Positions 9,769-49,911 of a DNA stretch of 64,000 nucleotides are shown in pieces (position 1 is the first letter of the stretch; each line of letters begins with the position of its first letter). Both the position numbers and the translations under genes were made by a program. The notes under the pieces were generated by a model. It saw only the letters and a list, made by a program, of their open reading frames with translations. It was not told the origin of the DNA and did no database searches. Origin of the DNA: Christensenella sp. UBA7571 (GTDB lineage Bacteria; Bacillota; Clostridia; Christensenellales; CAG-917); NCBI GenBank assembly GCA_002476605.1, contig DLLD01000016.1:99225-163224 (forward strand). The letters are read 5' to 3'.

Positions 9769-11412
9769 ATGGCAAAAAATACGAAAACGGTTAAAGTTAC
9801 CTTCCTTGGCGGTGTCGGTGAAATCGGCAAAAATATGACCGTCTTGGAATACGGCAACGATATGATAATCGTGGACTGCGGTGTGTCTTTCCCAAAAGAG
9901 GACAGCCCCGGCATAGACGCGATTATCCCCGACATCACTTACATCAAAGAAAATATATCAAGACTTCGCGGTATCGTGCTTACGCACGGTCACGAAGACC
10001 ACATCGGCGCAATTCCTTATTACGCCGACGACCTCAAAGACGTGCCTATCTACGGCACTGCGCTCACTATCGGGCTTCTTAAACGCAAGCTCGACAAGCA
10101 AGGCAAAAAGTGCAATCTCGTGACTATTTCGGCGGGGGACACTGTGTCTTTGGGAGAATTCCGCGTAGAATTTATCAAAGTGGCGCACTCTATGGCGGGT
10201 GCTTGCGCGCTCAATATCACTTGCCCCGTCGGCAACGTGTTCGTGACGGGTGACTTCAAGATCGACAACACGCCCATCGACGGCAAAAAGACGGATATAG
10301 GACGCATTGCGGAAATAGGCGCAAAGGGCGTTTTGCTTATGCTCGGAGAGTCCACCAACGTAGAGCGAGCGGGCAGTTCCACTTCGGAAAAAGTCGTAGG
10401 ACAAAATTTGGAGCAAATTTTCGTCGCAAACCCCAACAAACGCATAGTTATCGCGTGCTTTGCATCGTCCAACTACCGCGTGCAACAAGTGCTTACCCTT
10501 GCGCATAAGTACCATAGAAAAGTGGTGCTTGCGGGCAGAAGTATGAAAGGCATCGTGGACGTTGCGTCCGCTTGCGGTGAATTGCAGGTGCCAAAGGGCG
10601 TACTCGTTGACAGCGTTGGAAGATTGCTCCCCAGCGAAACCGTCGTGCTTGCAACCGGCTCGCAAGGTGAACCGCTCAGCGCGCTCAACAAGCTCTCAAA
10701 GGGTGAATTTAACAAAATCAATCTCGGCACGGACGACGTAGTGGTGCTCAGTTCTTCGCCTATCCCCGGCAACGAAAAATCCGTCTACGACGTCATCAAC
10801 GACTTGTTCAGAAAGGGCGCAAACGTCATTTACGACAGTATGAACGACATTCACGTGTCGGGACACGCTTACGCCGAGGAATTGAAACTTATGCTTACCC
10901 TCGTACACCCGCAGTTCTTTATGCCCGTGCACGGTGAGTATCGTCATCAATTCAAACACGCGGAAATTGCAAAATCGCTGGGCGTGGCAAGCAAAAATAT
11001 CGTCATTCCCAACATCGGCGAGTGCTACGGCGTAAATCAAAAGGGTATACGCCAACACTCCAACGTCGCGTCGGGCAACACCTACGTGGACGGCGTAGTG
11101 CTCGAAGACGGAAAATCCGTCGTCAACGACCGTCGTTCGCTTGCAGAATACGGTATGCTTTTGGTGCTTTGCGCGGTGGATATGGACCTCGGCAAAATCT
11201 CGGGGGACGTGGACGTGGTGGCAAGAGGCTTCAACCTCACCGACGACGTGCGCTCGTCCATAGAAAACGCAACAAAAGACGCGATAAATTCCGTCGATTT
11301 TGACAAGACCGACGTCAACGAAATCGCTCGCATAGTCAAAAAGGCTGTGAGAAAACTCTTTTACAAGGATAGACAATTCCCGATTATCATTCCCGTTATC
11401 GTCGAGGACTGA
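9769..11412 (+). CDS. rnj: ribonuclease J (metallo-beta-lactamase/beta-CASP)
   Basis: VKVTFLGGVGEIGKNM, LTHGHEDHIGA, SGHA and PVHGEYRH motifs. 547 aa. Confidence 0.9.
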   Translation: MAKNTKTVKVTFLGGVGEIGKNMTVLEYGNDMIIVDCGVSFPKEDSPGIDAIIPDITYIKENISRLRGIVLTHGHEDHIGAIPYYADDLKDVPIYGTALTIGLLKRKLDKQGKKCNLVTISAGDTVSLGEFRVEFIKVAHSMAGACALNITCPVGNVFVTGDFKIDNTPIDGKKTDIGRIAEIGAKGVLLMLGESTNVERAGSSTSEKVVGQNLEQIFVANPNKRIVIACFASSNYRVQQVLTLAHKYHRKVVLAGRSMKGIVDVASACGELQVPKGVLVDSVGRLLPSETVVLATGSQGEPLSALNKLSKGEFNKINLGTDDVVVLSSSPIPGNEKSVYDVINDLFRKGANVIYDSMNDIHVSGHAYAEELKLMLTLVHPQFFMPVHGEYRHQFKHAEIAKSLGVASKNIVIPNIGECYGVNQKGIRQHSNVASGNTYVDGVVLEDGKSVVNDRRSLAEYGMLLVLCAVDMDLGKISGDVDVVARGFNLTDDVRSSIENATKDAINSVDFDKTDVNEIARIVKKAVRKLFYKDRQFPIIIPVIVED

Positions 11413-35807: not shown

Positions 35808-35835
35808 TTGACATCGACGATTTTTTGTGTATAAT
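35808..35835 (+). promoter_or_regulatory. sigma-A type promoter of rpsU
   Basis: TTGACA (35808-35813), 16-nt spacer, TATAAT (35830-35835). Confidence 0.5.
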
Positions 35836-35871
35836 AGTAAGGTAAAATCCATTTTCGAGGAGGTGAATAAG

Positions 35872-36051
35872 ATGTCTACAGTTAAAGTTGGCGAAAACGA
35901 AAGCTTGGAAAACGCTATCCGTCGTTTTAAGAGAAAATGCGCTCGTGACGGCATCATCGGTGACCTCCGCAAGAAAGAGGCTTACGAGAAACCTAGCGTA
36001 AAACGCAAAAAGAAAGCAGAAGCTGCTCGTAAGAGAATGTACAAATCATAA
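35872..36051 (+). CDS. rpsU: 30S ribosomal protein S21
   Basis: [27 protein letters not shown]... 59 aa. GAGGAGGTG RBS. Confidence 0.93.
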
Positions 36052-36092: not shown

Positions 36093-36169
36093 GGAGGCAT
36101 GGCTCAGTTGGTTAGAGCACACGGTTCACATCCGTGAGGTCACAGGTTCGAGTCCTGTTGCCTCCACCA
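36093..36169 (+). tRNA. tRNA-Val (anticodon CAC), CCA-encoded
   Basis: Hand-folded cloverleaf. Acceptor GGAGGCA/TGCCTCC, D arm GCTC..GAGC. Anticodon stem CACGG/CCGTG with loop TTCACAT. T arm ACAGG-TTCGAGT-CCTGT, then ACCA. Confidence 0.88.
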
Positions 36170-36175
36170 CACTTT

Positions 36176-36208
36176 ACCAATCCGCACCAGTGGCGGATTG
36201 GTTTTTTT
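36176..36208 (+). terminator. rho-independent terminator after tRNA-Val
   Basis: ACCAATCCGC-ACCAGTG-GCGGATTGGT followed by a T7 run. Confidence 0.7.
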
Positions 36209-36520: not shown

Positions 36521-38491
36521 ATGGAAAAAAAAGATTTTCTTCGCTTATCACTAATTCTAAATGATAATCAGTCAACAACATTTAAAAGCAAGCTCAAAAG
36601 ATTGATAACGGAAGTTTTACGCGAGCATTATGGCGACGGCATGACCATTCAGGAGATTGTGATTGAATTAAGGGACAATTTTGCGCTCGAGTTTTCGGCT
36701 AATGAAATTTTAAGTATAATAAAAGGTGACGAAAAAACTTTTGTTATAAAACACAAGAATTCTGATCAAATATTGAATAAATATGATTTATCAATTTCTG
36801 CCTACACTAAGGCTTGCGAACGTAGCAGCGGTGTCTCTTTAACACAAATAATTAATGATTTTCTATCGACTAAAACGCAAGACATATCCGTAGAACAAGC
36901 TGAAGACTTGATTTTAAGGTTTTTATTTATAGAATTTAATGAGGATACTGAAAATCTCTTGAATTATATGAATAAAAGTATAAGTTTTCCAATACCAGAT
37001 GAAAATTTTTCTGATGAAGAAAAAACATTTATTGATTCTTTTCTTTCATGGGATAACAAAAACAAAAATAGGCTTATATTTAATGCGTTGTCATCAAGTA
37101 TTGATTATTGTATGATTACAGCACAACGAGATACTAGACTTATAAAAGATATGTTCTTCAATAAAACATTCTATCTTGACACAAATATTATATTCCGTCT
37201 TGCGGGTATTAATAAACAAGAACGACAAATAAATGCTGAGGCATTTATAAAAAAGTGCAAAGAGGTTAATATCACAATAAAATATACCAACTTAGTAGAA
37301 GAAGAAATCGATAATACCGTTGAGTATTACGTGGACTCTTTGGCTAAAACGCTGGGTTCGCACCAACATATTTCACCTGAAGCATATGCTCTTTTGTCAA
37401 ATAATTCTGTCAATGATGATTTCTATAAAGAATATGTACTATGGGTAAAAGACACCGCCAATACAGCAGGTAACTATTCAGCATTCAAATCATATTTAAA
37501 AAAGAAAATTCATAAAACACTTGCCAAATTCGAATATGAGGCCATTCATACTTACAATTATCGGTATAAGAATTTTGACGAGCTTACATGCGATTTTTAT
37601 GAGTATAAAAGAAAAAACCATAGAAATCCATCTCGTCAAAGCATTCAAACCGATATCAATCATTATTTATTTTTAAAAGAAAAAAATGGGAATAAGGGTC
37701 ATGCGAGTTTTATTGATTTGAATTCATATATGATTACAGAAGATAGATTTTTTGTAAATTGGTCAAAAGAGTACTACCCAAATACTGTACCAATGGTAAT
37801 GCTATCTTCTTTATGGTATTCAATTTTATTGAAATTTTCCAGTAGAACCGAAAATGACTATGTTTCGTTTTCTCAGTTTATAAAATTTAATTTACAAATT
37901 GAATGTAAACCATTTGACAAGAGAAGAAGCGATATACTTTATAAAATATTGTCACTTGATGAAAGCACTGAAATAAAAGACGAAGTAATTTATGATATAA
38001 ATAGTAAACTCAAGACGGACTATCAAGACAAAGATATTGACTATATTATTTCAACATCGCATGCAACTATAACCGATCGAAAGATTTTTGAAGTAAATCG
38101 CCAAAGGGATGAACAAGAAAATAAAAAAGAACAACAACGACATGCAGAAAATGTGGAAAACTATAATCGAGGTGCGCAAGAAACAATTGATTTTATTGTA
38201 GAAAAAGAAAGTTACAAGAAAAAAAGACGAAACATAGCACTTGTAAGCATAACACTATGTTTGCTTGTGGGGTCTTTAATTGCGCTTATTGTTTTGCTTA
38301 CGCTAGAGAAGCCTGGATTGGTTAGGTTTTCAGAATGGGCAAATAAAAACGGAATTATTGTGAGTGCTCTCTTTACTATCTTGTTTACAATATTGCAAGT
38401 TGTGTTTAAAAAAATAGGTGTATATATGTTTAACATAGATAAAATCAAAGAAAGAGTGCAGAAAAAATATCAAAATACGTTACGCAAATAG
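36521..38491 (+). CDS. membrane-anchored PIN-like domain protein (candidate defence/abortive-infection effector)
   Basis: 656 aa, very AT-rich gene, GGGGAG RBS. Has the PIN-type acidic motifs FYLDTNIIFRL and YMITEDRFF, a Glu/Lys-rich coiled-coil region, and two C-terminal TM helices (IALVSITLCLLVGSLIALIVLLTL, IIVSALFTILFTILQVVF). Confidence 0.5.
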   Translation: MEKKDFLRLSLILNDNQSTTFKSKLKRLITEVLREHYGDGMTIQEIVIELRDNFALEFSANEILSIIKGDEKTFVIKHKNSDQILNKYDLSISAYTKACERSSGVSLTQIINDFLSTKTQDISVEQAEDLILRFLFIEFNEDTENLLNYMNKSISFPIPDENFSDEEKTFIDSFLSWDNKNKNRLIFNALSSSIDYCMITAQRDTRLIKDMFFNKTFYLDTNIIFRLAGINKQERQINAEAFIKKCKEVNITIKYTNLVEEEIDNTVEYYVDSLAKTLGSHQHISPEAYALLSNNSVNDDFYKEYVLWVKDTANTAGNYSAFKSYLKKKIHKTLAKFEYEAIHTYNYRYKNFDELTCDFYEYKRKNHRNPSRQSIQTDINHYLFLKEKNGNKGHASFIDLNSYMITEDRFFVNWSKEYYPNTVPMVMLSSLWYSILLKFSSRTENDYVSFSQFIKFNLQIECKPFDKRRSDILYKILSLDESTEIKDEVIYDINSKLKTDYQDKDIDYIISTSHATITDRKIFEVNRQRDEQENKKEQQRHAENVENYNRGAQETIDFIVEKESYKKKRRNIALVSITLCLLVGSLIALIVLLTLEKPGLVRFSEWANKNGIIVSALFTILFTILQVVFKKIGVYMFNIDKIKERVQKKYQNTLRK

Positions 38492-38800
38492 TTTAGCAAC
38501 TGTTTAATTTCTACATGTGCGTCATGTTATATAAAAGGGAAATAATAATTTAAAGAATTTAAAAGAAGCGCAATTATTTCGAGTTACGCTTCTTTTATTT
38601 TGTTACAAGCAAAAGATATATTAAATCGCTTTTACTTTTTTATAAGTAAAAAAACGTTCTCCGCTGTTCATTGCCTTTCGGTGTGGCGGTTTAGCACCGA
38701 CAAAAGCCTTTGTCAACGGCATAAAAATCTTGTTATATTACTATCAAAAATTATCTCGCATTTAATGCACGTTTTATGTGCTTTTTAGTCGTTTGCCTGT

Positions 38801-38870
38801 TAGACGAGCCGTAGTCTTGATACAAGTGTGACGATTAGACGTGCCGTAGTCTTTGATACAAGTGCGCACG
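38801..38870 (+). repeat. tandem ~30-nt repeat; the second copy starts a 39-bp perfect direct repeat shared with 45449-45487
   Basis: TAGACGAGCCGTAGTCTTGATACAAGTGTG, then TAGACGTGCCGTAGTCTTTGATACAAGTGCG. CGATTAGACGTGCCGTAGTCTTTGATACAAGTGCGCACG is identical at 38832-38870 and 45449-45487. Confidence 0.85.
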
Positions 38871-39034
38871 TGCGCGCGCGAGAGATTAGATTATTTTGAT
38901 GAACTTTTTACACAACATTTTTATGCTGTTCGTTGACATAGGCATCATACGATTTGAAGTGATACGTTTTTGAGTTTTCTCGGTGCTGCACCGTCTTGTT
39001 GCCGAAAGGCAAATAAAACTCGGAGCGTATCAAT

Positions 39035-39721
39035 ATGAAATCTCAAATCATTCTTCAAAATCAAAATGCAATTAGTATTTATAATGACAATCAAGCACAA
39101 GTCAAAATCGTTGCAAAAAAGAAATGCATATTAGACGATGACGTTGTTATAACCGCAGACAACATCAAGAAAATAGGCGAATTGATAGCGTTGCTTACTA
39201 TAAGAACCGTTATGTGCCGTTCAGGCAAGGATTTATATCGCCTATATGACGGACTCATCAAGGATTGCAACAAATCAAACGATTCTCTCGATGAATACTC
39301 GGACGGATACGATATGGCGCAAACCGCAATGCTTTTCCTATGCGAACACATCGGCAAAAGACTTGGCGACAATTATACAACCACTCGTGGAAACGTTATC
39401 TCGATTAAGCAAGCGTGCTTCCGTTTTACTGATAGATACTTGGACAAACAATTCACTCGCCACTTGGCGCACACAACCGCCATAAACGACAGCGTTGTAT
39501 CGTCGCACATAACTTTTATCGACGACGAATCCAACAGCGATTATACCGCCGTTGACGCACTTATCGACAAGATGCAATTAACGCAAGGCGAGTATGACGT
39601 TCTCTGCGCCTATATGTCGGGATTGACTTATCTCGAAGTAACACAACTTCTAAATGTCAACCGCACAACCATATGGCGCAGAAGAATGAGTCTGCAAAGG
39701 AAATATATGATTTTAAGATAA
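39035..39721 (+). CDS. sigma-70 region-4-like HTH protein (mobile-element regulator)
   Basis: The C-terminus (LTQGEYDVLCAYMSGLTYLEVTQLLNVNRTTIWRRRMSLQRKY) is a region-4/LuxR-type HTH. The rest has no recognisable motif. Confidence 0.5.
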   Translation: MKSQIILQNQNAISIYNDNQAQVKIVAKKKCILDDDVVITADNIKKIGELIALLTIRTVMCRSGKDLYRLYDGLIKDCNKSNDSLDEYSDGYDMAQTAMLFLCEHIGKRLGDNYTTTRGNVISIKQACFRFTDRYLDKQFTRHLAHTTAINDSVVSSHITFIDDESNSDYTAVDALIDKMQLTQGEYDVLCAYMSGLTYLEVTQLLNVNRTTIWRRRMSLQRKYMILR

Positions 39722-39754
39722 AACAACCCGACATTGTGTCGGGCTGTTCTTATA

Positions 39755-42649
39755 TTATTTTAGTGCTAAAAAACCGGATATGAATGCGTCAGGGAATATA
39801 AATTGTTTTTCTCCGATAGCGAATTTGACGCGAATATGTATTTTAACGTTGTCTATCCAAGTTATAGTACCATCGCCAAATTTCTTATGTGTTACGGCGG
39901 TTCCGACTTGCACTTTTGACAACATTTCTTCGAGTGCACTGCTGGAAGATTCTTCTTCATTCGGCGAAACAACATCTGCCGCTACAATTTCGGCATTTGC
40001 AACGTCATCCTCTTTTGACTTTTTGACGTTTTGGTATTTTTCAGGAATGAGAACGCTTTCAAAGTCAGTCATCGTAGCTTGTTGCTTGCTATATAGTGCC
40101 TCATATTCTTCGCGCCTCAAAACTGTATCCCAACCGCCGATTGCTTCGCCTTCGTGTTTGTCGATACCCGTATATGACAAACTCGAATTCTCATATTTTC
40201 TAAATCCGAAAATGCCTTGGTTCATCTTTTCGGAATCAAACAAGCCGATTGAACACAACACGTCGAAATCTTTTACCGTAAGCCCCGTAACCTTTTGGAA
40301 AAGTTCAGGCTCGATTTGCGTAATAACATCCTTGATCGTTTGTTCTCTATAATCGGTGAGATACATAAAGGCAGGAATACGCGCTGCAAGTTTCAAAAGG
40401 TTTTCCTGTACTTGCTTACGCAAAGATTTTGCCTTCTTTTCGTCTTCGGTAAGTTCCTTCTTCTCGGTGGGCGTCAAATCGTCGCCTTTTTCTTTTTTGA
40501 GTTTTTTAACTTTTTCGGAACGGTTGATAATCGTCTGAATCTCTGCATTCAAAGAACGGAAGCCTTCTATGCGCATAAGCGCATCCAAAGCGTCTTGGTT
40601 GTTTTGCAATTTTTTGAGCGTGTCGTTGTCAACGTGCACCAAAAGCGCGGTTTGCCAACGCTTTGCAAGCAAGGTCGCAGACGTTCCTGCATAAGTTATA
40701 TCCAAAATATCTTGCGCATCGATACGATTCATCGACGAACCGTCAAATGCAAGAACCGGCAAGAATGAAATAAAGTCTTTCACCTTTTGTTCCGGGCTTG
40801 TTTCGTCAACTTTCAATCTGCACGAATAGTCCGAAATCTGATGCAATGCACGCTCTAACGCAAAGTCGAAGATATAACATTCTTGCTTGATAATTTCCTT
40901 ATCGCCGTGATCGTTGACGATTTCCCAAGGAGATTGCACTCTGAATGCCGTTTGAAAATACGTTTCGGGGGAATTCAAGTTGCGCAACATAAACACACCC
41001 GTCCACGGTCTTACGGTAACACCGGTGTTGAGTTTTCCGCAAGATAACGTGATAGTTTTCGTTTCAAGCGGATCGCCCATTGCTGCCAAAACAGGTTTTA
41101 GTGCATCCAAGCCTATGCCGACTTTTGATCCGGCGCACACAATGATTTTGTAGTCATTGAAAAAGTTGTTTTGTTTTTGACGCAATAAATTGTACATTGC
41201 ATAGCAACTTGCGACGTTAGGCAGATACCAAAACGTATGAGTTAGCACGTTTTGCAACGTAATATCGGAAAACGGCATAGGCGGACGTTCCGCACCAAGT
41301 TTCAAACCATCCACTGGCATATAGTTGCCCTGAATCATTTTTACCCATTTTTGCACGTCTTCTTCATATACAAATCTTGACGTCTCGACCTTTCCTTTTT
41401 CGATCGGTTGTGCCTTGAAAAATTCGTTAATATCAAATTCGTCATAGCCTTCGTTTATGGCAACGTTCGCAGTAATGGAATCGGGCACTTTATACGTAAG
41501 CATAACCATTTTAGGTAGTGCCGCATAAGGATTCTCGCCTCTTGATTTATCCCAGTTTTCTTTTGCCGCTTGTTCGTCAGAATAAGTCCAATTGAACACC
41601 TGGTCTTCCAAAAATTCGCCCGAATTAAGCGCACGGAAAGGCGTACCCGACAAATATAGATAATGCAAAGAAGTTATAGGCAAAAACGACTCGTTTATAG
41701 CGTTGCCGGCCTCTTCTTTCTGATACTTTTCAAGGTCAAAATCGTCGTCTTCCTCGTCGTACTTTTCAAACAAATTCTTTGCGTTTTCACGCCAAGCGCC
41801 AAAGTGATATTCGTCAAAAACGATAATATCCCAATTCGTTGTGTGTATAAATTCGTTTTTTGCTTTTATGCCACCGGCTTCGTTCGTGCCAAGCAAATCT
41901 TGAAACGAACCGAAAACGACGATAGGTTTTGTCTTGTCGCAAGCGTTATACTGTTCGTCAAGTTGTTTTGCATCGAATTTTGCTTCTTTGTTGCTGACGA
42001 ATTGCCACCCCTTGAAATCTACGTGGTGGGTAAGGTCTTCTTGCCAAGCGGATTCAACGGCTGGCTTAAAAGTAAGCACAAGGATTTTTTTGAACCCCAT
42101 TGCCTTGCACAATTCGTACGTTGCAAAAGTCTTGCCGAAACGCATTTTTGCATTCCACAAAAACTTTGGCGGGCGAGTGGGATCGTCTTTCTTTGATTGC
42201 TCAAAATACGATTTCGTCATATCGACGGCTTGTTGCTGTTCGTCACGCATAGCAAAATTCCACGTGCGATTGCCTTCAAAACGAATTTCAGTGCGGACTT
42301 CTTCAATCGCCGTCAAAGCGTCCGAAAGTGTGCATTTGAACCATTCGTTTTTGTCCGTGCCCGCGTTAAGTTGCAAAAAACCTTTGTGTTTCAACAAACG
42401 GTGAACGTCTTTGTCTGTAAAGCAAGTGCCGTCGGCACGCATTGCCGACTCCTTGAATAAGATTTTGAAATTAATTGCCGCCGTATGCAATTGTTCGCGG
42501 ATACGCGCTTCGGTGTCTTTTCTGTCTGTGTAGCCAATTTTTATATACCCCTCGTGATCTTTCACATCGGGCAGTATATATCCGTAAATTGTCGGCACAA
42601 CGGCAGGACGGTTATGTAATATTTCAGAAAGACTTATATTATTCGCCAT
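39755..42649 (-). CDS. T5orf172/GIY-YIG nuclease - SF2 (ResIII-like) helicase fusion with C-terminal UvrD-C/Tudor-like domain
   Basis: N-terminus: IYGYILPD...GYIKIGYTDRKDTEARIREQ...NEWF. Helicase motif I MRFGKTF, motif II IIVFDEYH, motif III LYLSGTPF, motif VI QTAFRVQSP. C-terminus: HKKFGDGTITWIDNVKIHIRVKFAIGEKQF. GGAG RBS 7 nt upstream, 4 nt after the methyltransferase stop. Confidence 0.7.
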   Translation of the reverse strand: MANNISLSEILHNRPAVVPTIYGYILPDVKDHEGYIKIGYTDRKDTEARIREQLHTAAINFKILFKESAMRADGTCFTDKDVHRLLKHKGFLQLNAGTDKNEWFKCTLSDALTAIEEVRTEIRFEGNRTWNFAMRDEQQQAVDMTKSYFEQSKKDDPTRPPKFLWNAKMRFGKTFATYELCKAMGFKKILVLTFKPAVESAWQEDLTHHVDFKGWQFVSNKEAKFDAKQLDEQYNACDKTKPIVVFGSFQDLLGTNEAGGIKAKNEFIHTTNWDIIVFDEYHFGAWRENAKNLFEKYDEEDDDFDLEKYQKEEAGNAINESFLPITSLHYLYLSGTPFRALNSGEFLEDQVFNWTYSDEQAAKENWDKSRGENPYAALPKMVMLTYKVPDSITANVAINEGYDEFDINEFFKAQPIEKGKVETSRFVYEEDVQKWVKMIQGNYMPVDGLKLGAERPPMPFSDITLQNVLTHTFWYLPNVASCYAMYNLLRQKQNNFFNDYKIIVCAGSKVGIGLDALKPVLAAMGDPLETKTITLSCGKLNTGVTVRPWTGVFMLRNLNSPETYFQTAFRVQSPWEIVNDHGDKEIIKQECYIFDFALERALHQISDYSCRLKVDETSPEQKVKDFISFLPVLAFDGSSMNRIDAQDILDITYAGTSATLLAKRWQTALLVHVDNDTLKKLQNNQDALDALMRIEGFRSLNAEIQTIINRSEKVKKLKKEKGDDLTPTEKKELTEDEKKAKSLRKQVQENLLKLAARIPAFMYLTDYREQTIKDVITQIEPELFQKVTGLTVKDFDVLCSIGLFDSEKMNQGIFGFRKYENSSLSYTGIDKHEGEAIGGWDTVLRREEYEALYSKQQATMTDFESVLIPEKYQNVKKSKEDDVANAEIVAADVVSPNEEESSSSALEEMLSKVQVGTAVTHKKFGDGTITWIDNVKIHIRVKFAIGEKQFIFPDAFISGFLALK

Positions 42650-42653
42650 ATCG

Positions 42654-44252
42654 TTACTCCATAGGTTTAATCATTGATTCGATAAAATCAATTTCTTCTT
42701 GTGACAAATTGTATTTCTTATATAATTCTTCGTCCGTCCATGGCTTTGAAAAATCTTGCATAGGGACGAATTGATAAACACCACGCGGGCCGTTTTGTGT
42801 TTTCTTTTTGATGCTAACAAGATAACGGAAAAATCTTGTTTTAATGTATGTAATTATATTCTCGCATTCTTGCTTGGAAAAATTGTGTTTCTCTGGATCA
42901 TATCCTATCACTAAATAAGTTTGAGAACATACACTGTTTGGCTCTCCATAGAATGGATAGCCTAATACTTGAGCATCAGTACCACTGCCGCCTGCCGCGG
43001 GAATGTAGATTTTATGTAACTTTATGGAAGCTACATTTTTGGGAATATCCGTTATTTTAACCCAACCAAAATCAAATTTGTGTATGTTCTTATTGAGATA
43101 ATATTTAATAGAGTAACTATCATTTTTTTCTTTAGAATAACCTTCCCAACTTGATGTCAACAGTTGTTTATTTGTAAAAAAGTCTTTTGGGCTAACCAAT
43201 GAGGCGAAATTTTCACATTCTTGTTCTATATACTTACCTTCAACCTTTTTAATATGATCAATTATAGATAGTGCGTTTATGTCTCTAATCACTATACCTG
43301 TATTGCTTGCATTAAGATAATTATAGTTTTCAATTATATCATTGCTTGATGTGTGCAAATAGTAATGGCACTTGCCAACATTGTTTTTGCTCCACAAAAA
43401 ATAGTTTACACCACCTTTAATTTCCACGCCGGGAAAACATAACCCCGAATCCAAAAAGTCATGCATGACCATAATATGATTATCGTTTAGCATAGAATCT
43501 ACCCATTCATCAGAGATTCCTTCGGTGCTACGTGTCATCCACCTACTTGGTGTAATCATTATCAAATAGTTAGGACTTAATTTCATGGCTTGTGAAATAA
43601 AGTGGTGATAAATTGCTTTTGATTTCGAGGCATTACCGCTTGTATTACCTACACTAAAATGATAAGGCGGATTGGATATAATTACATCGAATTTCATATT
43701 GAATATTTTCTCCGGATTGGTTGTGTGTATAAATTCGTATGCGTGGGTTTCTTTTTCATCGCCACGGTCGTAAGATTTGTTTGCTCCACAAAACTTACAT
43801 TTGTCGCCTATCCAAGTATGTTTTATGCGGCGAAATCTGATATTGCCTTCGGCTGTGTCGAAATGTGAGATCGAATATTCGCCGTTTGGGTATTTCGAGC
43901 AATACAGACTGCGACGAGATAACAGACTTGTGAGTTCCGTGATGGCAATGCCGTAAAGTTGTTTGTGGAAGATATGGTCTATACGTTCTTGCAAATCGGG
44001 GATTTTATCTTGCAATCCGACAAGCAAGCGTTTTGCAATCTCACGCAAGAAAACTCCCGTTTTGCAAGCCGGATCTAAAAACGTGGTGTTTGGATCGTAA
44101 AACAATTCCTGTGGCAACAAATCAAGCATTTGATTTACCACGTCGGGTGGGGTGAAAACTTCGTCGTTGCTTAAATTTGCAAGGCACGACAAAACGTCAG
44201 GCGTGTGCAAAGTTTTGTTTTTGTAGATTTTGTCAAAAAAGGTTTCAGCCAT
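42654..44252 (-). CDS. gamma-class N6-adenine DNA methyltransferase (Eco57I-like) with C-terminal recognition region
   Basis: Motif X VFTPPDVVNQM, motif I FLDPACKTGVFL, motif IV ISNPPYHF. 532 aa. Confidence 0.85.
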   Translation of the reverse strand: MAETFFDKIYKNKTLHTPDVLSCLANLSNDEVFTPPDVVNQMLDLLPQELFYDPNTTFLDPACKTGVFLREIAKRLLVGLQDKIPDLQERIDHIFHKQLYGIAITELTSLLSRRSLYCSKYPNGEYSISHFDTAEGNIRFRRIKHTWIGDKCKFCGANKSYDRGDEKETHAYEFIHTTNPEKIFNMKFDVIISNPPYHFSVGNTSGNASKSKAIYHHFISQAMKLSPNYLIMITPSRWMTRSTEGISDEWVDSMLNDNHIMVMHDFLDSGLCFPGVEIKGGVNYFLWSKNNVGKCHYYLHTSSNDIIENYNYLNASNTGIVIRDINALSIIDHIKKVEGKYIEQECENFASLVSPKDFFTNKQLLTSSWEGYSKEKNDSYSIKYYLNKNIHKFDFGWVKITDIPKNVASIKLHKIYIPAAGGSGTDAQVLGYPFYGEPNSVCSQTYLVIGYDPEKHNFSKQECENIITYIKTRFFRYLVSIKKKTQNGPRGVYQFVPMQDFSKPWTDEELYKKYNLSQEEIDFIESMIKPME

Positions 44253-44964
44253 TTTCTTGCACCTTCCTATAATGCACGGGCGGATATTCGCATATCGGCT
44301 CTGCCATATATTCTTTTGTTGTTGGGTTTATAGACAAATATTTCCGTATGTCTTCGGGAACGTCGAGAAGGGATAGTTGTTCGCTTTTGGGCTTGTCGTT
44401 TGCTTTGAGCATCACGTCAAGGCGGAAATCACGACGTTTGAGTTTTGTGCCGAGCATAAGGCTCCATTCAGGGAAAACTATTGGTGTATCCGTATCGTTT
44501 TGGTTTTCATCCACGCACATAAGCGTTAAAGCATTGCCGCATAGAATGTTTTTGGAAAGGATATACTTCACGGCATCGCGTGTTTCGTCGTTCGTTGATT
44601 TTTTACAAACTGAATTGTATTCCTTATTCCACAACTCAAATAGTCGTGCACGACATTCGTTTACGTTATCAGCAAGAATATCTACGCCGTAAATGCTTGT
44701 TATTGCAAGCACGGAATATCTTTCAAAATCGTAAGGATTTGACTTATATAGTTTTTTTACAGTGGAAAGTTTGCGTGTCAATATTTCAGCCAAAAAATTG
44801 CCATCCCCACACGCGGGCTCTAAAAAACGACTGTCTATTCGGTCACATTCTTGCGCGACCAAATCACACATAGCCTTGACTTCGCGCTCGGCTGTAAACA
44901 CTTCGCCATGGTCAGCGACTCTTTTTTTAGATTTTATTTGTGAATTGTGCAACGACGCACTCAT
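44245..44964 (-). CDS. methyltransferase-like SAM-binding protein lacking a canonical NPPY motif
   Basis: GEVFTAEREV (motif X), FLEPACGDGNFL (motif I), IYGVDILADNV, NILCGNAL. The expected motif IV position reads VFPEW. Start at ATG 44964 after GGGTGGA. 8-nt overlap with the downstream methyltransferase start. Confidence 0.55.
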   Translation of the reverse strand: MSASLHNSQIKSKKRVADHGEVFTAEREVKAMCDLVAQECDRIDSRFLEPACGDGNFLAEILTRKLSTVKKLYKSNPYDFERYSVLAITSIYGVDILADNVNECRARLFELWNKEYNSVCKKSTNDETRDAVKYILSKNILCGNALTLMCVDENQNDTDTPIVFPEWSLMLGTKLKRRDFRLDVMLKANDKPKSEQLSLLDVPEDIRKYLSINPTTKEYMAEPICEYPPVHYRKVQENG

Positions 44965-44997
44965 TTTTGAATTCCACCCATTATATATTGCAATTAG

Positions 44998-45017
44998 TAT
45001 ATCGCATTTACGATATA
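44998..45017. promoter_or_regulatory. candidate controller-protein operator (C-box-like inverted repeat) in the divergent promoter region
   Basis: TATATCG-N6-CGATATA, between the divergent methyltransferase-like gene (start 44964) and the XRE gene (start 45082). ATTGCAAT palindrome nearby. Confidence 0.3.
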
Positions 45018-45081
45018 TAGTCAATGTATTTGCGAAGTATATATGTCGTAAAAGCGTAGTAAACTATTACAAGAGGTGCAA

Positions 45082-45381
45082 ATGAACGTTATAGATAAAA
45101 TAAGAGAATTGCAATGGGAACGTGGTTGGACAGACTACAAATTAGCACAAGCGGCAGATATTTCACAATCTTCGCTTGCCACTTTATATTCTCGTCAAAC
45201 ACCGCCAAAACTCGAAATGTTACAACGCATTTGCGAAGCATTTGGAATAACGCTATCTCAATTCTTTTTGGACGATGAACAAATTGATATATTGTCGGAA
45301 AGAGAAAAGAAAATGATTTCGTCATTTAGAAAACTTACCCCCGAAAAACAACAAGCATTGATTGCCTTGATTGCAGATTGA
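45082..45381 (+). CDS. XRE-family HTH protein (putative controller of the adjacent R-M-like operon)
   Basis: 99 aa: IRELQWERGWTDYKLAQAADISQSSLATLYSRQTPPKLEMLQRICEAFGITLSQFF. AAGAGG RBS. Confidence 0.8.
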   Translation: MNVIDKIRELQWERGWTDYKLAQAADISQSSLATLYSRQTPPKLEMLQRICEAFGITLSQFFLDDEQIDILSEREKKMISSFRKLTPEKQQALIALIAD

Positions 45382-45448
45382 TAAGATGGTTCCGTATAAA
45401 AGCGGAGCCATTTTTAGTTTTAATTTTTATGTCTCCATCTCATTTTGG

Positions 45449-45517
45449 CGATTAGACGTGCCGTAGTCTTTGATACAAGTGCGCACGCGTACGCGCGCGC
45501 AAGACTACGGCACGTCT
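45449..45517 (+). repeat. 39-bp direct repeat partner plus a 17-bp perfect inverted repeat hairpin
   Basis: 45449-45487 is identical to 38832-38870. AGACGTGCCGTAGTCTT (45454-45470) pairs with AAGACTACGGCACGTCT (45501-45517) around a GC-rich alternating loop (GCGCACGCGTACGCGCGCGC). Confidence 0.85.
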
Positions 45518-46129
45518 TTGCATAAAAATAAACCCAAATCCGCAAAAGGCGGCACGGAGCGGAGCGAGGTTTCGCGCTAACCCGCTTGGCGAAATCCTCG
45601 CTTATCCGTCTTGCCGTTGCCGTCGCTTTTTATTGCGGAAATCTTTGGCGTTTTGTATATTGCAAAAATTCGTTTGCCGTTTCGTCTTTTTGTGTCGCGT
45701 AGGCGTTACGACATTGTTCCGCAATCATATTTTCATCATCAAAATCGTGTTCAAATCACGTTCTGTTATTGTTTCAAATTTGTCCAAACTGCGCACGACA
45801 CCGTCCTTGCTTTCTCACTCTCTTGCATTTACGCTGTTTATAGTGCAAAGTGCGGAAAAAGTACGGCTGAGTCTAGGTGAATATCCAAAAATACTTGGTT
45901 TTGTACCCTGTGAGTATGTTACGCACATAACAAATATTTGATATAACAAAACTGTCTTTCTTGTTGGAAGCGTGAACGCAAACTCGGCATTGTCAAGGGT
46001 AAATGCATTGCCCCTGCAACCCTTGACAATCCCCATAAAAACTCGGATATGAAACAATTTATATCGTTTCCGTTCTTTTCGTTTCCTGTCGAAAGACACA
46101 ATAACCATAACTTAGGAGGAAATACAACA

Positions 46130-47737
46130 ATGAAAGGTGCTGTGATTTATGCGAGATACTCTTGCGAACGGCAAACGGAGCAGTCCATTGAAGGACAGTT
46201 ACGAGAGTGTTACAAATACGCAGAACAAAACGGCTTAACCATTATCCATGAATATATAGACCGTGCTATGACAGGCACAAACGACAATCGTCCGTCTTTT
46301 CAAAAGATGCTTGCGGACGCGGAACGCACAAGTGCTTGGGACATAGTTCTTGTATATGCGCTGGATAGGTTCGGCAGAAACTCAATCGAGATTGCATTGA
46401 ACAAACAAAAACTCATAAAAAGCGGAAAGACGCTTATATCCGCAACTCAGCGAACGTCCACGAATATAGACGGCTCGCGCAATTTGGACGGAATACTGCT
46501 AGAAAATATGTATATTGGACTTGCCGAATATTATTCGGCTGAATTATCCCAAAAGATAAAGCGCGGACTTAGAGAAAGCAGGCTCAAAGGACAATTCGGC
46601 GGTGGCGGCGTTGCTTACGGATATAAAGTAGTAAACAAAAAACTTGAAATAAATGAAGAACAAGCGCAAATCGTAAAATACATTTTTGAACGCTATCACG
46701 GTGGCAAAATCGTGCGCGAAATCATTGAAGAACTGACCGCGCGAGGCGTTTTATACAAAAACAAACCGTTCGTTCCGCAAACCGTATATAAAATGCTTGC
46801 AAACGAGAAATATATTGGCATTACCAAATATAACGGCGAGGTATATGACAACATCTATCCGCCTATTATTGACAAATCGTTGTTCGATTCTATACAGCAA
46901 AAACTATCGGTTAATAAGACGGGAAAACGTAGCGTGAATATAACATTCTTGTTGCGCAATAAAGTTGTGTGCGGGTATTGCGGACGACATCTGCAAGGAG
47001 ATAGTTCAACGGCAAGAAACGGCAAATTACGTTTTTATTACAAGTGCGCAGGGCGTAAAAAACATAAAGATTGCAATTTGCGCGTTATCCGCCAACAAGA
47101 ATTGGACGATTTCGTTTCGCAAGTCACATATGAAGTGTTTTGCACTGACGAAAATATATCGCTTATTGCGGACAAAGTTCTCGAAGTTCAAGCACAACGT
47201 AACAAGAGCGACAGCGTATTGCAAACGTTGCACAAACGATTGTACGATACGGACAAAGCATTGACCAACGTTATGAGCGCAATTGAGCAAGGAATAATAA
47301 CAAAAACCACAAAGGAACGACTTGCCGCTCTTGAAAACGAAAAAGAAGATATAGAAACAAAAATAGCAGTTGAAGAAACACGTCGGCAAAAGACGTTCAA
47401 CAAGGAAGAAATAGAACGATTCTTGCGCACGGAGTTCAAAGACGATCCGCAACTATATTTACAGCACATACTCGACAGAGTTGTCGTCTATGACGACAAA
47501 ATAGAAATATTCTACAAATACACAAACGCCATCCCCGATGATTCAGACAATGAACGTCGGGGATATTTTTCATCTCAATGCAAAATCAAAATTAACAAGG
47601 CAAAACGCTCGATGCAAGTGCTTGATATTACCATAGACCAAACAATTCATTTTGAGGTGTTGTACGTCATAAACCGCCGACACAAATTGCGTTTCAACCT
47701 TGAAAAAACACCAACCAATTCTCACGGTGCGGATTAG
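46130..47737 (+). CDS. large serine recombinase (resolvase/invertase N-domain, recombinase domain, zinc ribbon, coiled coil)
   Basis: AVIYARYSCERQTEQSIEGQ (catalytic Ser), ALDRFGRN, Zn-ribbon CGYCGRHL...YYKCAGRKKHKDC. AGGAGGA RBS. Start moved to the ATG at 46130. Confidence 0.9.
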   Translation: MKGAVIYARYSCERQTEQSIEGQLRECYKYAEQNGLTIIHEYIDRAMTGTNDNRPSFQKMLADAERTSAWDIVLVYALDRFGRNSIEIALNKQKLIKSGKTLISATQRTSTNIDGSRNLDGILLENMYIGLAEYYSAELSQKIKRGLRESRLKGQFGGGGVAYGYKVVNKKLEINEEQAQIVKYIFERYHGGKIVREIIEELTARGVLYKNKPFVPQTVYKMLANEKYIGITKYNGEVYDNIYPPIIDKSLFDSIQQKLSVNKTGKRSVNITFLLRNKVVCGYCGRHLQGDSSTARNGKLRFYYKCAGRKKHKDCNLRVIRQQELDDFVSQVTYEVFCTDENISLIADKVLEVQAQRNKSDSVLQTLHKRLYDTDKALTNVMSAIEQGIITKTTKERLAALENEKEDIETKIAVEETRRQKTFNKEEIERFLRTEFKDDPQLYLQHILDRVVVYDDKIEIFYKYTNAIPDDSDNERRGYFSSQCKIKINKAKRSMQVLDITIDQTIHFEVLYVINRRHKLRFNLEKTPTNSHGAD

Positions 47738-47918: not shown

Positions 47919-47939
47919 CGAGTCCTGTTGCCTCCACCA
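47919..47939 (+). repeat. direct repeat of the tRNA-Val 3' end (distal att site of the island)
   Basis: Exact 21-nt match to 36149-36169. Degenerate terminator-like homology continues to ~48010. Confidence 0.75.
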
Positions 47940-48153
47940 ATCGATAACCATCCGCACCTATAGCACTTACAGGAGCGGATATTTTATTTTTATCGGGCAT
48001 TTTGTAGTTTATTGGTAAACACAAATCTTTGTTCCTTTTTATTCCATACCTAATATTAAAAGTTACATAATGATTTCCGTATATAAATAAAATATTGCCA
48101 TAAAAGTTTCGGAGTGGTATAATACAGAAAAATAAATAGTTTTTAGGCGAAAT

Positions 48154-49911
48154 ATGAAAAGAGATATTGAAAAATTGCAAGAGTTCGTCAGAGACGGCGG
48201 AATCGACGCGTATATCGTGTTTACCAGCGACGATCACGGCAGTGAATACGTCGTGGATCACTTCAAAACGCGCGCGTTTCTTTGCGGATTTACGGGAAGC
48301 GCGGGCACGCTCGTGGTGACGAGAGACGGCGCGTATCTGTGGACGGACGGAAGATATTTTATTCAAGCGGCAGAGCAACTTAAAGCAACCGATACCGTGC
48401 TTATGAAAGCGGGTGAAGAGGGTGTGCAGTCCATTTTCGAGTTTGTGAAAAAACTCTCCGATACGCCCAAAATTGCGTTTGATTTTACCACGGCTACGGT
48501 TGAATTCGTCGAAGCGTTGAAGAAGAGCGTCAAGGGCGCAGAACTCGTCGATTGCGGTGAAATTATCGACCGTATTTGGCAAGATCGTCCCGAAGTCGCG
48601 CCTACGAAGGCGTGGATTTTGCCCGATAACGCAACGGGTGAGAGCGTCAAGAGCAAGATTGAAAACTTGCAAAAAGACCTTGAAAAACAAGATTGCGAAT
48701 ACGCGCTCGTCTCCTCGCTTGACGATATTGCGTGGCTTTTCAATATGCGCGGAAGCGATATCGAGTACAATCCCGTCAATTATGCGTACGCAATCGTGTC
48801 CAAGGACGGCGCGACGTTGTTTATAGACGATAGAAAACTCGATGCGAAATGCAAGAAAATTCTTGCGGAAAACGATATAAATACGTTGCCGTATAGCGAC
48901 GTTTACGGCGTGGTTTCGCAAATAGAGGGAAGAGTGCTTATCGACAAGGAAAAGACCAATTACGCGCTGTTCTCTCGCATAAAGAACGTCAAAGAGACGG
49001 AGTCTTTCCCCACGACGGTGAGAAAGGCAATAAAGAACGTGGTCGAGATAAAGAATATGAAAAAAGCGCACGTCGAGGACGGCGTTGCAGTGCTCAAATT
49101 TATGCGTTATCTCAAAGAGAACGCGGGCAAAGAGGCTATGAGCGAGATTTCGCTTGCGGACAAGCTCGAAGCGTTTAGAAGAGAAAGCAAAAACTTCCTC
49201 GACCTCAGTTTCGACACCATTTGCGGATACGCTTCAAACGGCGCAATCGTGCATTATTCCGCAACTCCCGAGACGGACAAAGTAGTCGAAAATAAGGGCT
49301 TACTCCTCGTTGACAGCGGTGCGCAATATCGTTACGGCACGACGGATATAACTCGTACGTTTGCGATGGGCAAGGTTACGAACGAGGAGAAGCGCGCGTT
49401 TACTATCGTGCTTAAATCGCATATCGCGCTTGCAAGAGCGACGTTCCCCAAAGGAACGACGGGGGCACGTCTCGATATGATTTCCAGAGCGCCGATGTAT
49501 GCCAGCGGTATGGACTTCAAGCACGGCACGGGGCACGGCGTTGGATATTTGCTCAACGTCCACGAAGGTCCGCAAAATATCTCACCGAGAGCGTTTACGC
49601 CCAAGTACGCCGTTTTGCCGTGTATGATTACGTCCAACGAACCCGGTTTTTACGAGGAAGGCAAGTTTGGAATAAGACACGAAAACCTCGTGCTTTGCGT
49701 GGAAAAAGAAAAGACGGAATACGGCACGTTCTGCGCGTTCGAGACGATAACGCTCGTGCCTTTCGACCTTGACGCAATAGACGTAAAACTGCTTGACGAG
49801 GACGAAAAAGCGTGGCTCAACGCATATCATAAGACGGTGCGCAAGACTATCGGCAAGTACCTCGACGGCAAAGATTTGAAGTTCCTCGAAAGAGCGACGA
49901 GAGAAATCTAA
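48154..49911 (+). CDS. Xaa-Pro aminopeptidase (M24B, creatinase-like N-domains)
   Basis: M24 metal ligands (DSGAQY..GTTDITRT, HGTGHGVG, SNEPGFY, E in RHEN). 585 aa. Confidence 0.85.
   Translation: MKRDIEKLQEFVRDGGIDAYIVFTSDDHGSEYVVDHFKTRAFLCGFTGSAGTLVVTRDGAYLWTDGRYFIQAAEQLKATDTVLMKAGEEGVQSIFEFVKKLSDTPKIAFDFTTATVEFVEALKKSVKGAELVDCGEIIDRIWQDRPEVAPTKAWILPDNATGESVKSKIENLQKDLEKQDCEYALVSSLDDIAWLFNMRGSDIEYNPVNYAYAIVSKDGATLFIDDRKLDAKCKKILAENDINTLPYSDVYGVVSQIEGRVLIDKEKTNYALFSRIKNVKETESFPTTVRKAIKNVVEIKNMKKAHVEDGVAVLKFMRYLKENAGKEAMSEISLADKLEAFRRESKNFLDLSFDTICGYASNGAIVHYSATPETDKVVENKGLLLVDSGAQYRYGTTDITRTFAMGKVTNEEKRAFTIVLKSHIALARATFPKGTTGARLDMISRAPMYASGMDFKHGTGHGVGYLLNVHEGPQNISPRAFTPKYAVLPCMITSNEPGFYEEGKFGIRHENLVLCVEKEKTEYGTFCAFETITLVPFDLDAIDVKLLDEDEKAWLNAYHKTVRKTIGKYLDGKDLKFLERATREI

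Follow-up and report, generated by a model that had tools for sequence, protein, structure and literature searches.

What kind of enzyme is encoded where genes for a complete-looking adenine methyltransferase and a helicase follow what appears to be half of another methyltransferase? This question is raised by three tightly coupled genes, here called A, B and C, in a 64,000-nucleotide stretch of contig DLLD01000016.1 from Christensenella sp. UBA7571; the whole of this stretch is referred to as the window. An earlier account of the window, made from its letters and open reading frames (ORFs) and called here the sequence-only reading, had proposed that the three genes and a divergent controller gene form an undescribed, ATP-dependent restriction or defence design. 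We consider it likely that the locus encodes a three-subunit, ATP-dependent restriction-modification (R-M) system, and that it is a split form of a Type ISP-like family of enzymes. Sequence comparisons indicate that the trio is conserved as a single functional unit and bears the marks of an ATP-dependent R-M-like defence module, because it combines a hypervariable recognition domain, a helicase-T5orf172 fusion with invariant residues, a mobile location and defence genes as neighbours. To this extent the proposed design stands; its relatives proved to be catalogued, A proved to be a truncated half, and the controller proved to be optional. The genes and their regulatory region are as follows.

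44964..44245, minus strand: gene A, ORF of 239 amino acids (aa) counted from the ATG
44252..42654, minus strand: gene B, ORF of 532 aa
42649..39755, minus strand: gene C, ORF of 964 aa
45082..45381, plus strand: gene for a 99-aa XRE-family helix-turn-helix (HTH) regulator, an optional accessory (HTH_3 and HTH_26 in Pfam; PADLOC HTH_VI, 1.7e-11)
44996..45056: regulatory spacer holding a promoter-like site for the operon, a candidate operator palindrome and a second 17-nt inverted repeat

ORF and sequence analysis bore out the layout first described, namely three minus-strand ORFs with an overlap of 8 nt between A and B and a gap of 4 nt between B and C, a divergent HTH gene and a palindrome. 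A longer, TTG-initiated ORF is also present for gene A; the ATG start is backed by homologs. The proteins of the window were searched against Pfam, PADLOC, NCBIfam and PHROGs, and the Pfam check agreed with the first domain calls: T5orf172 and ResIII in C, Eco57I in B and HTH_3 in the regulator.

The trio is conserved in split and fused forms

We scanned one genome per species, obtained at least 571 confirmed matches to A, kept the best 80 loci (these and other related loci are numbered L below), called their ORFs and searched these with the window proteins. The trio noticed in the window is conserved across genomes: among these best 80 loci, the order A→B→C on one strand was found in 44 of the 46 with at least 6 kb of sequence downstream, and the two exceptions look disrupted. 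The hosts are mostly gut Clostridia, with Treponema, Anaerolineae, Turicimonas, Parasutterella, Phascolarctobacterium and others also represented, although some of these assignments of metagenome-assembled genomes (MAGs) may reflect a mis-binned mobile element. Independent starts from C led, in Sinorhizobium and on a metagenome contig whose protein NCBI names from a Desulfomicrobium MAG, again to a small gene with a weak MmeI_Mtase match, an Eco57I gene and C, in that order. Plasmids of Sphingopyxis (Alphaproteobacteria) and Mycolicibacterium (Actinobacteria) carry the trio under the annotations 'N-6 DNA methylase' or 'type III restriction endonuclease subunit M', 'Eco57I ... protein', and 'DEAD/DEAH box helicase' or 'GIY-YIG nuclease'. 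Matches were found on 81 plasmids for C and 74 for A, with the same taxonomic profile, and the family as a whole ranges over gut Clostridia, spirochaetes, Proteobacteria, Actinobacteria, Deinococcus and the plasmids of dairy or clinical Lactobacillales.

In the last of these groups the architecture is different. On E. faecium p211b-a and L. lactis pCV56A, C and B are fused into one protein of 1445-1452 aa with the order T5orf172-like domain, helicase, Eco57I methyltransferase and C-terminal region, and in tblastn residues 21-670 of C align with the N-terminal part of the fused Lactobacillales protein at 36% identity. The fused enzymes lack the Cys/His insert of B. Immediately upstream of the fused gene lies an A-like gene (230-248 aa, 34-40% identical to A), which overlaps it by 8 nt in p211b-a. 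Because an A-like gene stands upstream of the fused enzymes as well as within the split trio, we conclude from these comparisons that A is the constant partner of both architectures. The PADLOC model REase_MTase_IIG PDLC03626 covers both genes of the window, with C residues 124-650 matching its positions 148-675 (7.6e-29) and B residues 24-531 matching positions 863-1359 (1.9e-37). By homology, then, the window holds the split version of a family that is catalogued but uncharacterised. In the literature searched in full text, no paper describes this gene set or a half-methylase partner, and no characterised member was found; in that sense the system is undescribed, as had been claimed, but the match of C and B to the REBASE-derived PDLC03626 means that the family had already been catalogued by homology.

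Some relatives are disrupted. Gene A of L071 is split into two ORFs (9959-10696), about 2.7 kb is inserted between A and B in L046 (10705-16123), where B is in two pieces, C of L003 (12235-14987) is interrupted by a run of N, and both L051 and L061 lack C and carry a truncated B.

Gene A encodes half of a methyltransferase

Gene A (44245..44964, minus strand) is annotated here as a non-catalytic half-methyltransferase, with motifs X, I, II and III and a beta insert, a degenerate motif IV, and neither motifs V-VIII nor a recognition domain. Its family matches are weak (MmeI_Mtase in Pfam and phrog_21201, of 156 aa, in PHROGs). The sequence-only reading had credited it with motifs X, I and II-III, and these are invariant or nearly so across the family: X (GEVFT), I (EPACGDGNFL), II (YGVD) and III (CGNAL). 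It had further placed VFPEW where NPPY is expected and had taken A for a methyltransferase paralog degenerate in motif IV; neither view survived comparison with full-length relatives. Four Eco57I-type methylases (P0264, P0273, P0280 and P0361), about 50% identical to the first ~190 residues of A, carry the same F(S/P)EW segment, then FDVI(I/V)GNPPY 15-40 residues on, and then a B-like C-terminal half. Since these relatives hold the segment and a separate NPPY as well, VFPEW is ruled out as a degenerate NPPY and is a conserved, lineage-specific insert. In BLASTP, D179-FRLDVML-186 of A pairs with the DIKFDVIV strand of P0280, which places motif IV of A at K187-A-N-D190, four residues that the A family does not conserve. 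The protein stops ~50 residues past this aligned position, in an unrelated tail, and alignment to the full-length enzymes revealed no motif IV (D/N/S)PP(Y/F/W), no motifs V-VIII and no recognition domain. On this evidence A is the beta1-beta4 half of an Eco57I/CamA-like methylase, and the encoded protein is predicted to be unable to methylate.

The fold agrees with this assignment. An AlphaFold2 (AF2) model of protein A has a predicted local distance difference test score (pLDDT) of 91.9, and its best matches among solved structures are the N-terminal half of CamA, followed by BsaXI and BrxX, over ~139 columns (template-modelling score for CamA, 0.33 over ~139 aligned columns). A simple origin of A as a paralog of B was ruled out: profile-profile comparison of the two families detected homology only over motifs X-I (56 columns), and the nearest relatives of A are the N-terminal halves of another Eco57I-type lineage.

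A truncated methylase could also be a frameshift or decaying fragment of a longer one, as the sequence-only reading had considered. Gene A has at least 8000 database relatives, with lengths of 233-260 aa, mostly 233-247 aa, among the 120 best listed; 399 representatives of 50%-identity clusters match at E<=1e-30; and the ratio of nonsynonymous to synonymous substitution rates (dN/dS) is 0.05-0.11. The constant length, the diversity of the clusters, the low dN/dS and the retention of A in split and fused architectures rule out a frameshift or decaying fragment, and we regard A, on these comparative grounds, as a functional full-length family under strong purifying selection. Its pairwise distances track those of C (r = 0.93) and of the catalytic half of B (r = 0.84) and not those of the recognition region of B (r = 0.31).

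Other half- and hybrid methylases were encountered in these searches. The stand-alone Eco57I-type methylases P0264, P0273, P0280 and P0361, of ~500-530 aa, resemble composites in which an A-type N-terminal half is followed by the catalytic and recognition half of a B-type protein. P0280 (L090, 276-1778) has a serine recombinase nearby and no C-like gene downstream, and its contig begins 275 bp upstream. Among viral models, BFVD matches to the A model (A0A8S5TY28, A0A1B1P8M5 and Q58MW7) are short half-methylase-like phage proteins of 130-199 aa, from phages that include Klebsiella phage KpV477 and Prochlorococcus phage P-SSM2. Full-length A was found on only two metagenomic 'phage' contigs and is not a typical phage gene. 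Sequence searches of the PDB with A, B and C gave nothing useful.

Gene B joins a conserved catalytic half to a variable recognition region

Protein B divides into two parts of very different conservation.

43503..44252, minus strand: gene B residues 1-250, gamma-class N6-adenine methyltransferase catalytic domain with FLDPACKTG as motif I, NPPY at 43662-43673 and a Cys/His cluster
42654..43502, minus strand: gene B residues 251-532, hypervariable target-recognition region of low column conservation, with a conserved extreme C-terminus

Protein B matches Pfam Eco57I at 4.9e-34 (118 bits) and MmeI_Mtase at 19.5 bits, below the cut-off of 27. Motifs X and I lie at residues 31-69 and an invariant NPPY at residues 194-197, which is the gamma-class order. 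In an alignment of 70 homologs, columns 18-200 are mostly at least 95% identical and cover FLDPAC-K-TG, YGIAITE, the Cys/His cluster and FDVIISNPPY; the conserved Cys/His positions include C118, H130, H145, C152, C155 and H170, and K64 is invariant in 19 diverse homologs. Residues 251-480 are hypervariable in the same 70 sequences. This contrast persists between close relatives: in 10 independent pairs of cassettes, one of them the window and L010, A and C differ by at most 9% and the recognition region of B by 62-71%, and the nonsynonymous rate (dN) is 0.47-0.68 for the variable region of B against 0.007-0.08 for A. Clusters formed at 90% identity have 12 members for B against 957 for A and 1738 for C. 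Because the catalytic half is conserved while the recognition region differs between near-identical cassettes, these comparisons identify the variable C-terminal region of B as a specificity domain exchanged by recombination, as in R-M systems.

Gene C fuses a putative nuclease to a helicase

Four regions can be distinguished in protein C.

42296..42586, minus strand: gene C residues 22-118, T5orf172 (GIY-YIG clan) putative nuclease domain (PF10544, 30.8 bits, cut-off 20; MUG113)
40700..42280, minus strand: gene C residues 124-650, superfamily 2 (SF2) helicase/translocase core with GKT, DEYH, SGTP and QxxFRxQ (ResIII, PADLOC PDLC03626, phrog_16 DNA helicase)
40070..40699, minus strand: gene C residues 651-860, helical region defined by column conservation, a candidate coupler or subunit-interaction region
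39755..39910, minus strand: gene C residues 914-964 and stop, small beta-rich C-terminal domain, possibly Tudor/SH3-like (profile match below cut-off, and model)

The first two of these had been recognised in the sequence-only reading, and both calls hold. The N-terminal match exceeds its cut-off, and Y22, K37, G39, R49 and E102, which include the catalytic-type Tyr, Arg and Glu, are invariant among homologs down to 31% identity, with H83 nearly so. Because these residues are conserved and T5orf172 domains are active nucleases in ICP1 and PLE (PMC8263062), we assign a putative nuclease function to this domain. ResIII matches residues 132-298 at 27.9 bits (cut-off 22.5); helicase motifs I, II, III and VI are intact and invariant down to 31% identity, and the dN/dS of the C core is 0.01-0.04. 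Residues 651-860 are as conserved as the helicase core and co-vary with it (r = 0.96), and searches of the family libraries with this region gave no match. The Tudor-like C-terminus that had also been proposed fared less well. The AF2 model does contain a small four-stranded beta region at residues 918-951 (pLDDT ~70), but the match to PcrA_UvrD_tudor is weak (E = 0.004, 17.5 bits, below the cut-off of 23.9). The last ~100 residues are variable, or absent in homologs of ~850 aa, and the Proteobacterial, Treponema and Turicimonas homologs lack the beta domain.

An optional regulator faces the operon

The HTH gene diverges from the start of A across 117 bp. On the minus strand, the operon's best promoter-like site is TTGACT-17-TATACT (45024..44996), with the -35 element at 45019-45024 and the -10 element at 44996-45001; the palindrome TATATCG-N6-CGATATA (44998-45017) lies inside the spacer of this site. 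A second, 17-nt inverted repeat occupies 45003-45019 and 45040-45056. The palindrome core, TATCG-N6-CGATA, occurs once in the window, against 0.11 copies expected by chance, and it recurs at the equivalent upstream position in L009, L010, L014, L015, L017 and L044, all of which have the HTH gene and in which the other spacer bases vary. An HTH homolog is upstream and divergent in 22 of 73 related loci; in L097 the gene lies directly upstream of A in the same orientation. The operon had been described as controller-regulated, and the regulator and the promoter palindrome are indeed present and conserved together. Since only 22 of the 73 loci carry the gene and its orientation varies, comparison of the loci indicates that the HTH protein is an optional regulator of the cassette and not a defining part.

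Relation to known restriction-modification systems

As encoded, the gene set of the window fits none of the canonical types, as first noted: it departs from the definitions of Type I, Type III and the single-chain Type IIG and ISP enzymes. The closest design is that of the Type ISP enzymes LlaGI and LlaBIII, which likewise combine a nuclease, an SF2 helicase-like motor, a linker, a gamma-class N6-adenine methyltransferase and a recognition domain, in the N-to-C order seen in the fused relatives, and which are plasmid-borne in lactic acid bacteria (PMC3553950). They differ in having an Mrr/PD-(D/E)xK nuclease rather than a T5orf172/GIY-YIG-type one (T5orf172/MUG113), and in being single polypeptides, whereas B and C are separate here and form a single chain only in the Lactobacillales relatives. 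Neither C nor the fused protein has detectable sequence homology to the LlaGI and LlaBIII chains, and membership of Type ISP by sequence was rejected. The extra half-methylase subunit is a further difference; we know of no Type ISP counterpart of A. The 2012 paper on Type ISP enzymes mentions related, uncharacterised R-M enzymes with helicase subunits or domains and GIY-YIG nucleases (PMC3553950).

True homology to both C and B is found in the single-chain proteins of PADLOC PDLC03626, named 'Eco57I RM methylase domain-containing' (e.g. WP_014570255.1 of pCV56A), which also have an A-like gene upstream. These are one polypeptide where the window has two, encoded in the opposite order (B before C), and we found no member with published activity. 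The DnmA(YeeA)-YeeB-YeeC set resembles the trio in concept, in that one horizontally acquired operon encodes a T5orf172 protein, an SF2 helicase and an N6-adenine methyltransferase that has a recognition domain of its own (PMC9973331). By their description these proteins are nevertheless distinct: DnmA is an MmeI-like methyltransferase of ~880 aa and B an Eco57I/CamA-like one of 532 aa; the helicase and T5orf172 functions of YeeB and YeeC are separate, with T5orf172 C-terminal, and in C they are fused, with T5orf172 N-terminal; and no half-methylase partner is described there.

Type III enzymes such as EcoP15I (Mod2Res) also separate a methylase and specificity subunit from a helicase-nuclease subunit, and C matches ResIII. 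In Type III systems Mod is a homodimeric, beta-class methyltransferase (motif IV before I) and Res has a C-terminal PD-(D/E)xK nuclease. Here, in contrast, the methyltransferase is gamma-class, the T5orf172-type nuclease domain is N-terminal, C ends in a small beta domain, and a distinct, truncated protein takes the place of the second protomer. The two Mod protomers of EcoP15I have divided roles, and a second methylase-like protomer such as A, which is not predicted to methylate, recalls this pairing.

The remaining systems are further removed. Unlike Type I loci, the cassette has no HsdS-like gene, and its variable region is the C-terminal half of B. Type IIG and IIL enzymes (Eco57I, MmeI) are single-chain nuclease-methyltransferases without an ATP-dependent motor, whereas the helicase is conserved here. 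CamA and the Eco57I family are related in that B matches Eco57I (PF07669) and the A model matches the N-terminal half of CamA; CamA, however, is a stand-alone orphan methyltransferase, and A has no catalytic loop, strands beta5-7 or recognition domain. Type II systems with C proteins are likewise equipped with a small XRE HTH protein and a palindrome, here a putative operator, that overlaps an R-M promoter, but the HTH gene is divergent here instead of upstream of the R gene and co-transcribed with it, and it is absent from ~70% of the related cassettes. BREX and MADS were rejected, with NF033452 (PglX) scoring 15 bits against 500 and NF047738 (MAD2) 21 against 720, and no other BREX or MADS genes in the locus.

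A model for the three subunits and its alternatives

If the locus is an ATP-dependent R-M system, B would be its modification and specificity subunit, marking host DNA, and the variable C-terminal domain of B would read a short, probably asymmetric site. C would be the restriction subunit: recruited to unmodified sites, its SF2 motor would translocate on double-stranded DNA with ATP, and its N-terminal T5orf172/GIY-YIG-type domain would cut DNA. To judge from Type ISP and Type III enzymes, the cut would probably be made at some distance from the site, and the convergence of two complexes may be required. A would be an obligatory, constant subunit, a non-catalytic half-methylase that, with its binding motifs for S-adenosylmethionine (SAM) intact, binds this cofactor and serves as adaptor or regulator in the B-C complex. 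It would add no specificity; it might gate nuclease or motor activity by the availability of the cofactor, or be the pseudo-dimer partner of the methylase domain of B. The XRE HTH protein would bind the palindrome in the operon promoter and control expression on entry into a new cell. The model assigns methylation, ATPase activity, translocation along DNA, cutting, assembly of the complex, binding of the operator and the role of A from domain identities and comparative patterns.

Several points weigh against the model. The role given to A is speculative. B had been read as a complete adenine methyltransferase, and its Eco57I domain and NPPY agree with this, but an invariant Lys replaces the first Gly of motif I, and where motif II aligns there is no acidic residue; B thus counts as a putative autonomous methylase. 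For C, nuclease activity of the T5orf172 domain is a prediction within this family. The AF2 model is poor (pLDDT 50, from an alignment of two clades and 26 sequences), and the idea of a double-stranded DNA translocase draws on weak fold matches of this low-confidence model to Snf2-like, HsdR, PriA and LlaGI (5ffj) motors; searches of the PDB with C, the fused pCV56A protein and a profile of 15 sequences returned no relative at E<=1, LlaGI and LlaBIII included. In the literature searched, we found no biochemical or genetic data for any member of the family. Finally, neither restriction nor protection from phages was seen with the B. subtilis dnmA-yeeB-yeeC cluster in the conditions used (PMC9973331).

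For A, the data allow either an adaptor or SAM-sensing role or a true split-methylase role. In the latter case A would supply the functional SAM-binding half in trans, methylation or SAM-dependent licensing of restriction, or both, would need an A-B heteromer, and the N-terminal half of B, with its atypical motifs I and II and Zn-finger-like insert, may now serve another end, such as contact with C. In A, motifs I (EPACGDGNFL) and II (YGVD) are canonical, while all B homologs read ACKTG and YGIAI and the fused enzymes are more degenerate (FADLYVKSG, YACAPGD). Moreover, because stand-alone methyltransferases such as P0280 join an A-type N-half (54% identity) to a B-type C-half, an A-type half can build a complete enzyme with a B-type half, and A accompanies every architecture. 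We nonetheless think a split methyltransferase unlikely: B matches N6_Mtase and MmeI_Mtase across its own motifs X-III and probably has a complete Rossmann domain, with no room for the strands of A. In M.TaqI, too, the first residue of motif I is not Gly, so that a different residue would be tolerated there.

Somewhat less probable again is that the cassette carries out no active restriction and is a selfish or epigenetic module, an orphan-like methylase with a relic or differently used helicase-nuclease that serves element maintenance, addiction or anti-defence. Such was the conclusion reached for B. subtilis DnmA-YeeB-YeeC, and the negative restriction and phage tests cited above would agree with it (PMC9973331). 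The confinement of the cassette to plasmids and small integrative elements would fit, as would the occurrence of stand-alone methylases with an A-type N-half and a B-type C-half where the C gene is missing. Against this, all three genes are under strong purifying selection, with a dN/dS of 0.01-0.04 in the core of C; the nuclease-type and helicase motifs are invariant; swapping of recognition domains is typical of arms-race changes in specificity; and defence genes are common as cargo and neighbours. Deletion of dnmA/yeeB homologs in Vibrio crassostreae, moreover, made the cells more sensitive to some phage subclades (PMC9973331).

Exclusion that dispenses with classical cleavage, by a C translocase that blocks replication as in BREX or an A that senses a modified or foreign base (Type IV-like or abortive), is very improbable: A and B do weakly match the MAD2 and PglX models, the A fold is weakly similar to BrxX and a base- and cofactor-binding methylase-like half incapable of chemistry would suit a sensor, but the model scores fall far below the cut-offs, the locus has no companion BREX or MADS genes and the conserved nuclease-type residues point to cleavage.

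Implications of a constant half-methylase

Within the preferred reading of the locus as a three-subunit R-M system, a further step can be proposed tentatively, and we hold it to be well short of probable: that A is a third kind of obligatory subunit, defining a distinct class of ATP-dependent R-M systems (split A+B+C and A+fused) with a GIY-YIG-type nuclease, in which A is a cofactor sensor, an allosteric switch or a trans-acting SAM-binding half. If so, A would couple the availability of SAM to the choice between methylation and translocation-driven cleavage, which could bear on the SAM-depleting counter-defence of phages. To our knowledge, a SAM-coupled choice made by a half-methylase has not been described for Type I, ISP, IIG or III systems. 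A GIY-YIG-type, motor-driven class would be added beside Type I, ISP and III, from a very common family (at least 571 matches to A, at one genome per species) for which no characterised member was found. It may explain barriers to gene transfer and phages in gut anaerobes and starter cultures, and orphan-looking N6-methyladenine motifs in methylomes. The conserved pseudo-methylase subunit poses a testable puzzle of how methylase folds are reused for regulation or assembly, and the naturally swappable recognition domain of B could help to engineer specificity.

The cassette lies in a small mobile island

Around the trio, the following features complete the annotation.

46049-47737: large serine recombinase gene, 562 aa, at the right end of the island
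39727..39743: G+C-rich stem-loop flanked by the stop codons of gene C (39755) and of the convergent gene (39721), a possible shared terminator by consensus match (7 pairs, 5 of them G-C)
39035-39721, plus strand: convergent 228-aa gene with a sigma-70 region-4-like C-terminal HTH (weak SigK match)

The cassette is contained in an island of ~11.8 kb whose G+C content is below that of its flanks. The ends are marked by the 3' end of a tRNA-Val gene (36093-36169), which is duplicated 11.77 kb away (40 nt, 85% identical; 36149-36188 and 47919-47958). Related cassettes are likewise found in small elements with serine or tyrosine recombinases, Mob_Pre relaxases or Rep proteins, and their neighbours include RloB/AAA_15, GmrSD/DUF262, Abi_C, HigBA and TIR genes. 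The junction between B and C is a hotspot for insertion, with an extra gene in about 20 of the 80 loci (L010, L011, L012, L015, L016, L018, L019, L022, L037, L039, L042, L047, L048, L050, L060, L068, L070, L072, L081 and L088). The cargo includes DUF2971 (L016, L019), Abi_2 on the opposite strand (L039, L048), a YafQ toxin with a RelB antitoxin (L047, L060), a PIN-like protein (L070), an HNH_5-like protein (L088), small membrane proteins (L010, L012, L050) and several proteins that belong to no family. In Type I loci, similar accessory genes sit between the modification and restriction genes.

Within the island, a 67-nt direct repeat (84% identical; 38791-38880 and 45431-45517) brackets a 6.6-kb segment in which the trio, the 228-aa gene and the HTH gene all lie. 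Three copies of TTAGACGNGCCGTAGTCTT are present in the repeat, whose right-hand copy also forms a long palindrome around a CG-alternating core. The TTAGACGNGCCGTAGTCTT motif also flanks the cassette in L010 (138-156 and 7056-7074) and is present in L009 (3635-3653); an exact search of the related loci gave no match to the 67-nt repeat, and the shorter motif only in these two. The bracketed segment may be a nested mobile cassette, or the repeat may be a recombination or origin site. The 228-aa gene recurs beside C in related elements (L005-L008, L010, L011, L019 and L026) and probably belongs to the mobile-element backbone. Further to the left, an AT-rich (G+C ~30%) ORF of 656 aa on the plus strand (36521-38491), with a hydrophobic C-terminal tail, matched no family in Pfam, PADLOC, NCBIfam or PHROGs; in L033 the trio is followed, 2.4 kb downstream, by a homolog of this ORF (3e-101), and the ORF may be another defence or cargo gene of such islands. 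Judged from their translations, the flanks of the island are chromosomal, with a ribosomal protein S21-like ORF on the left (35827-36051) and a 585-aa ORF resembling Xaa-Pro aminopeptidase on the right (48154-49911).

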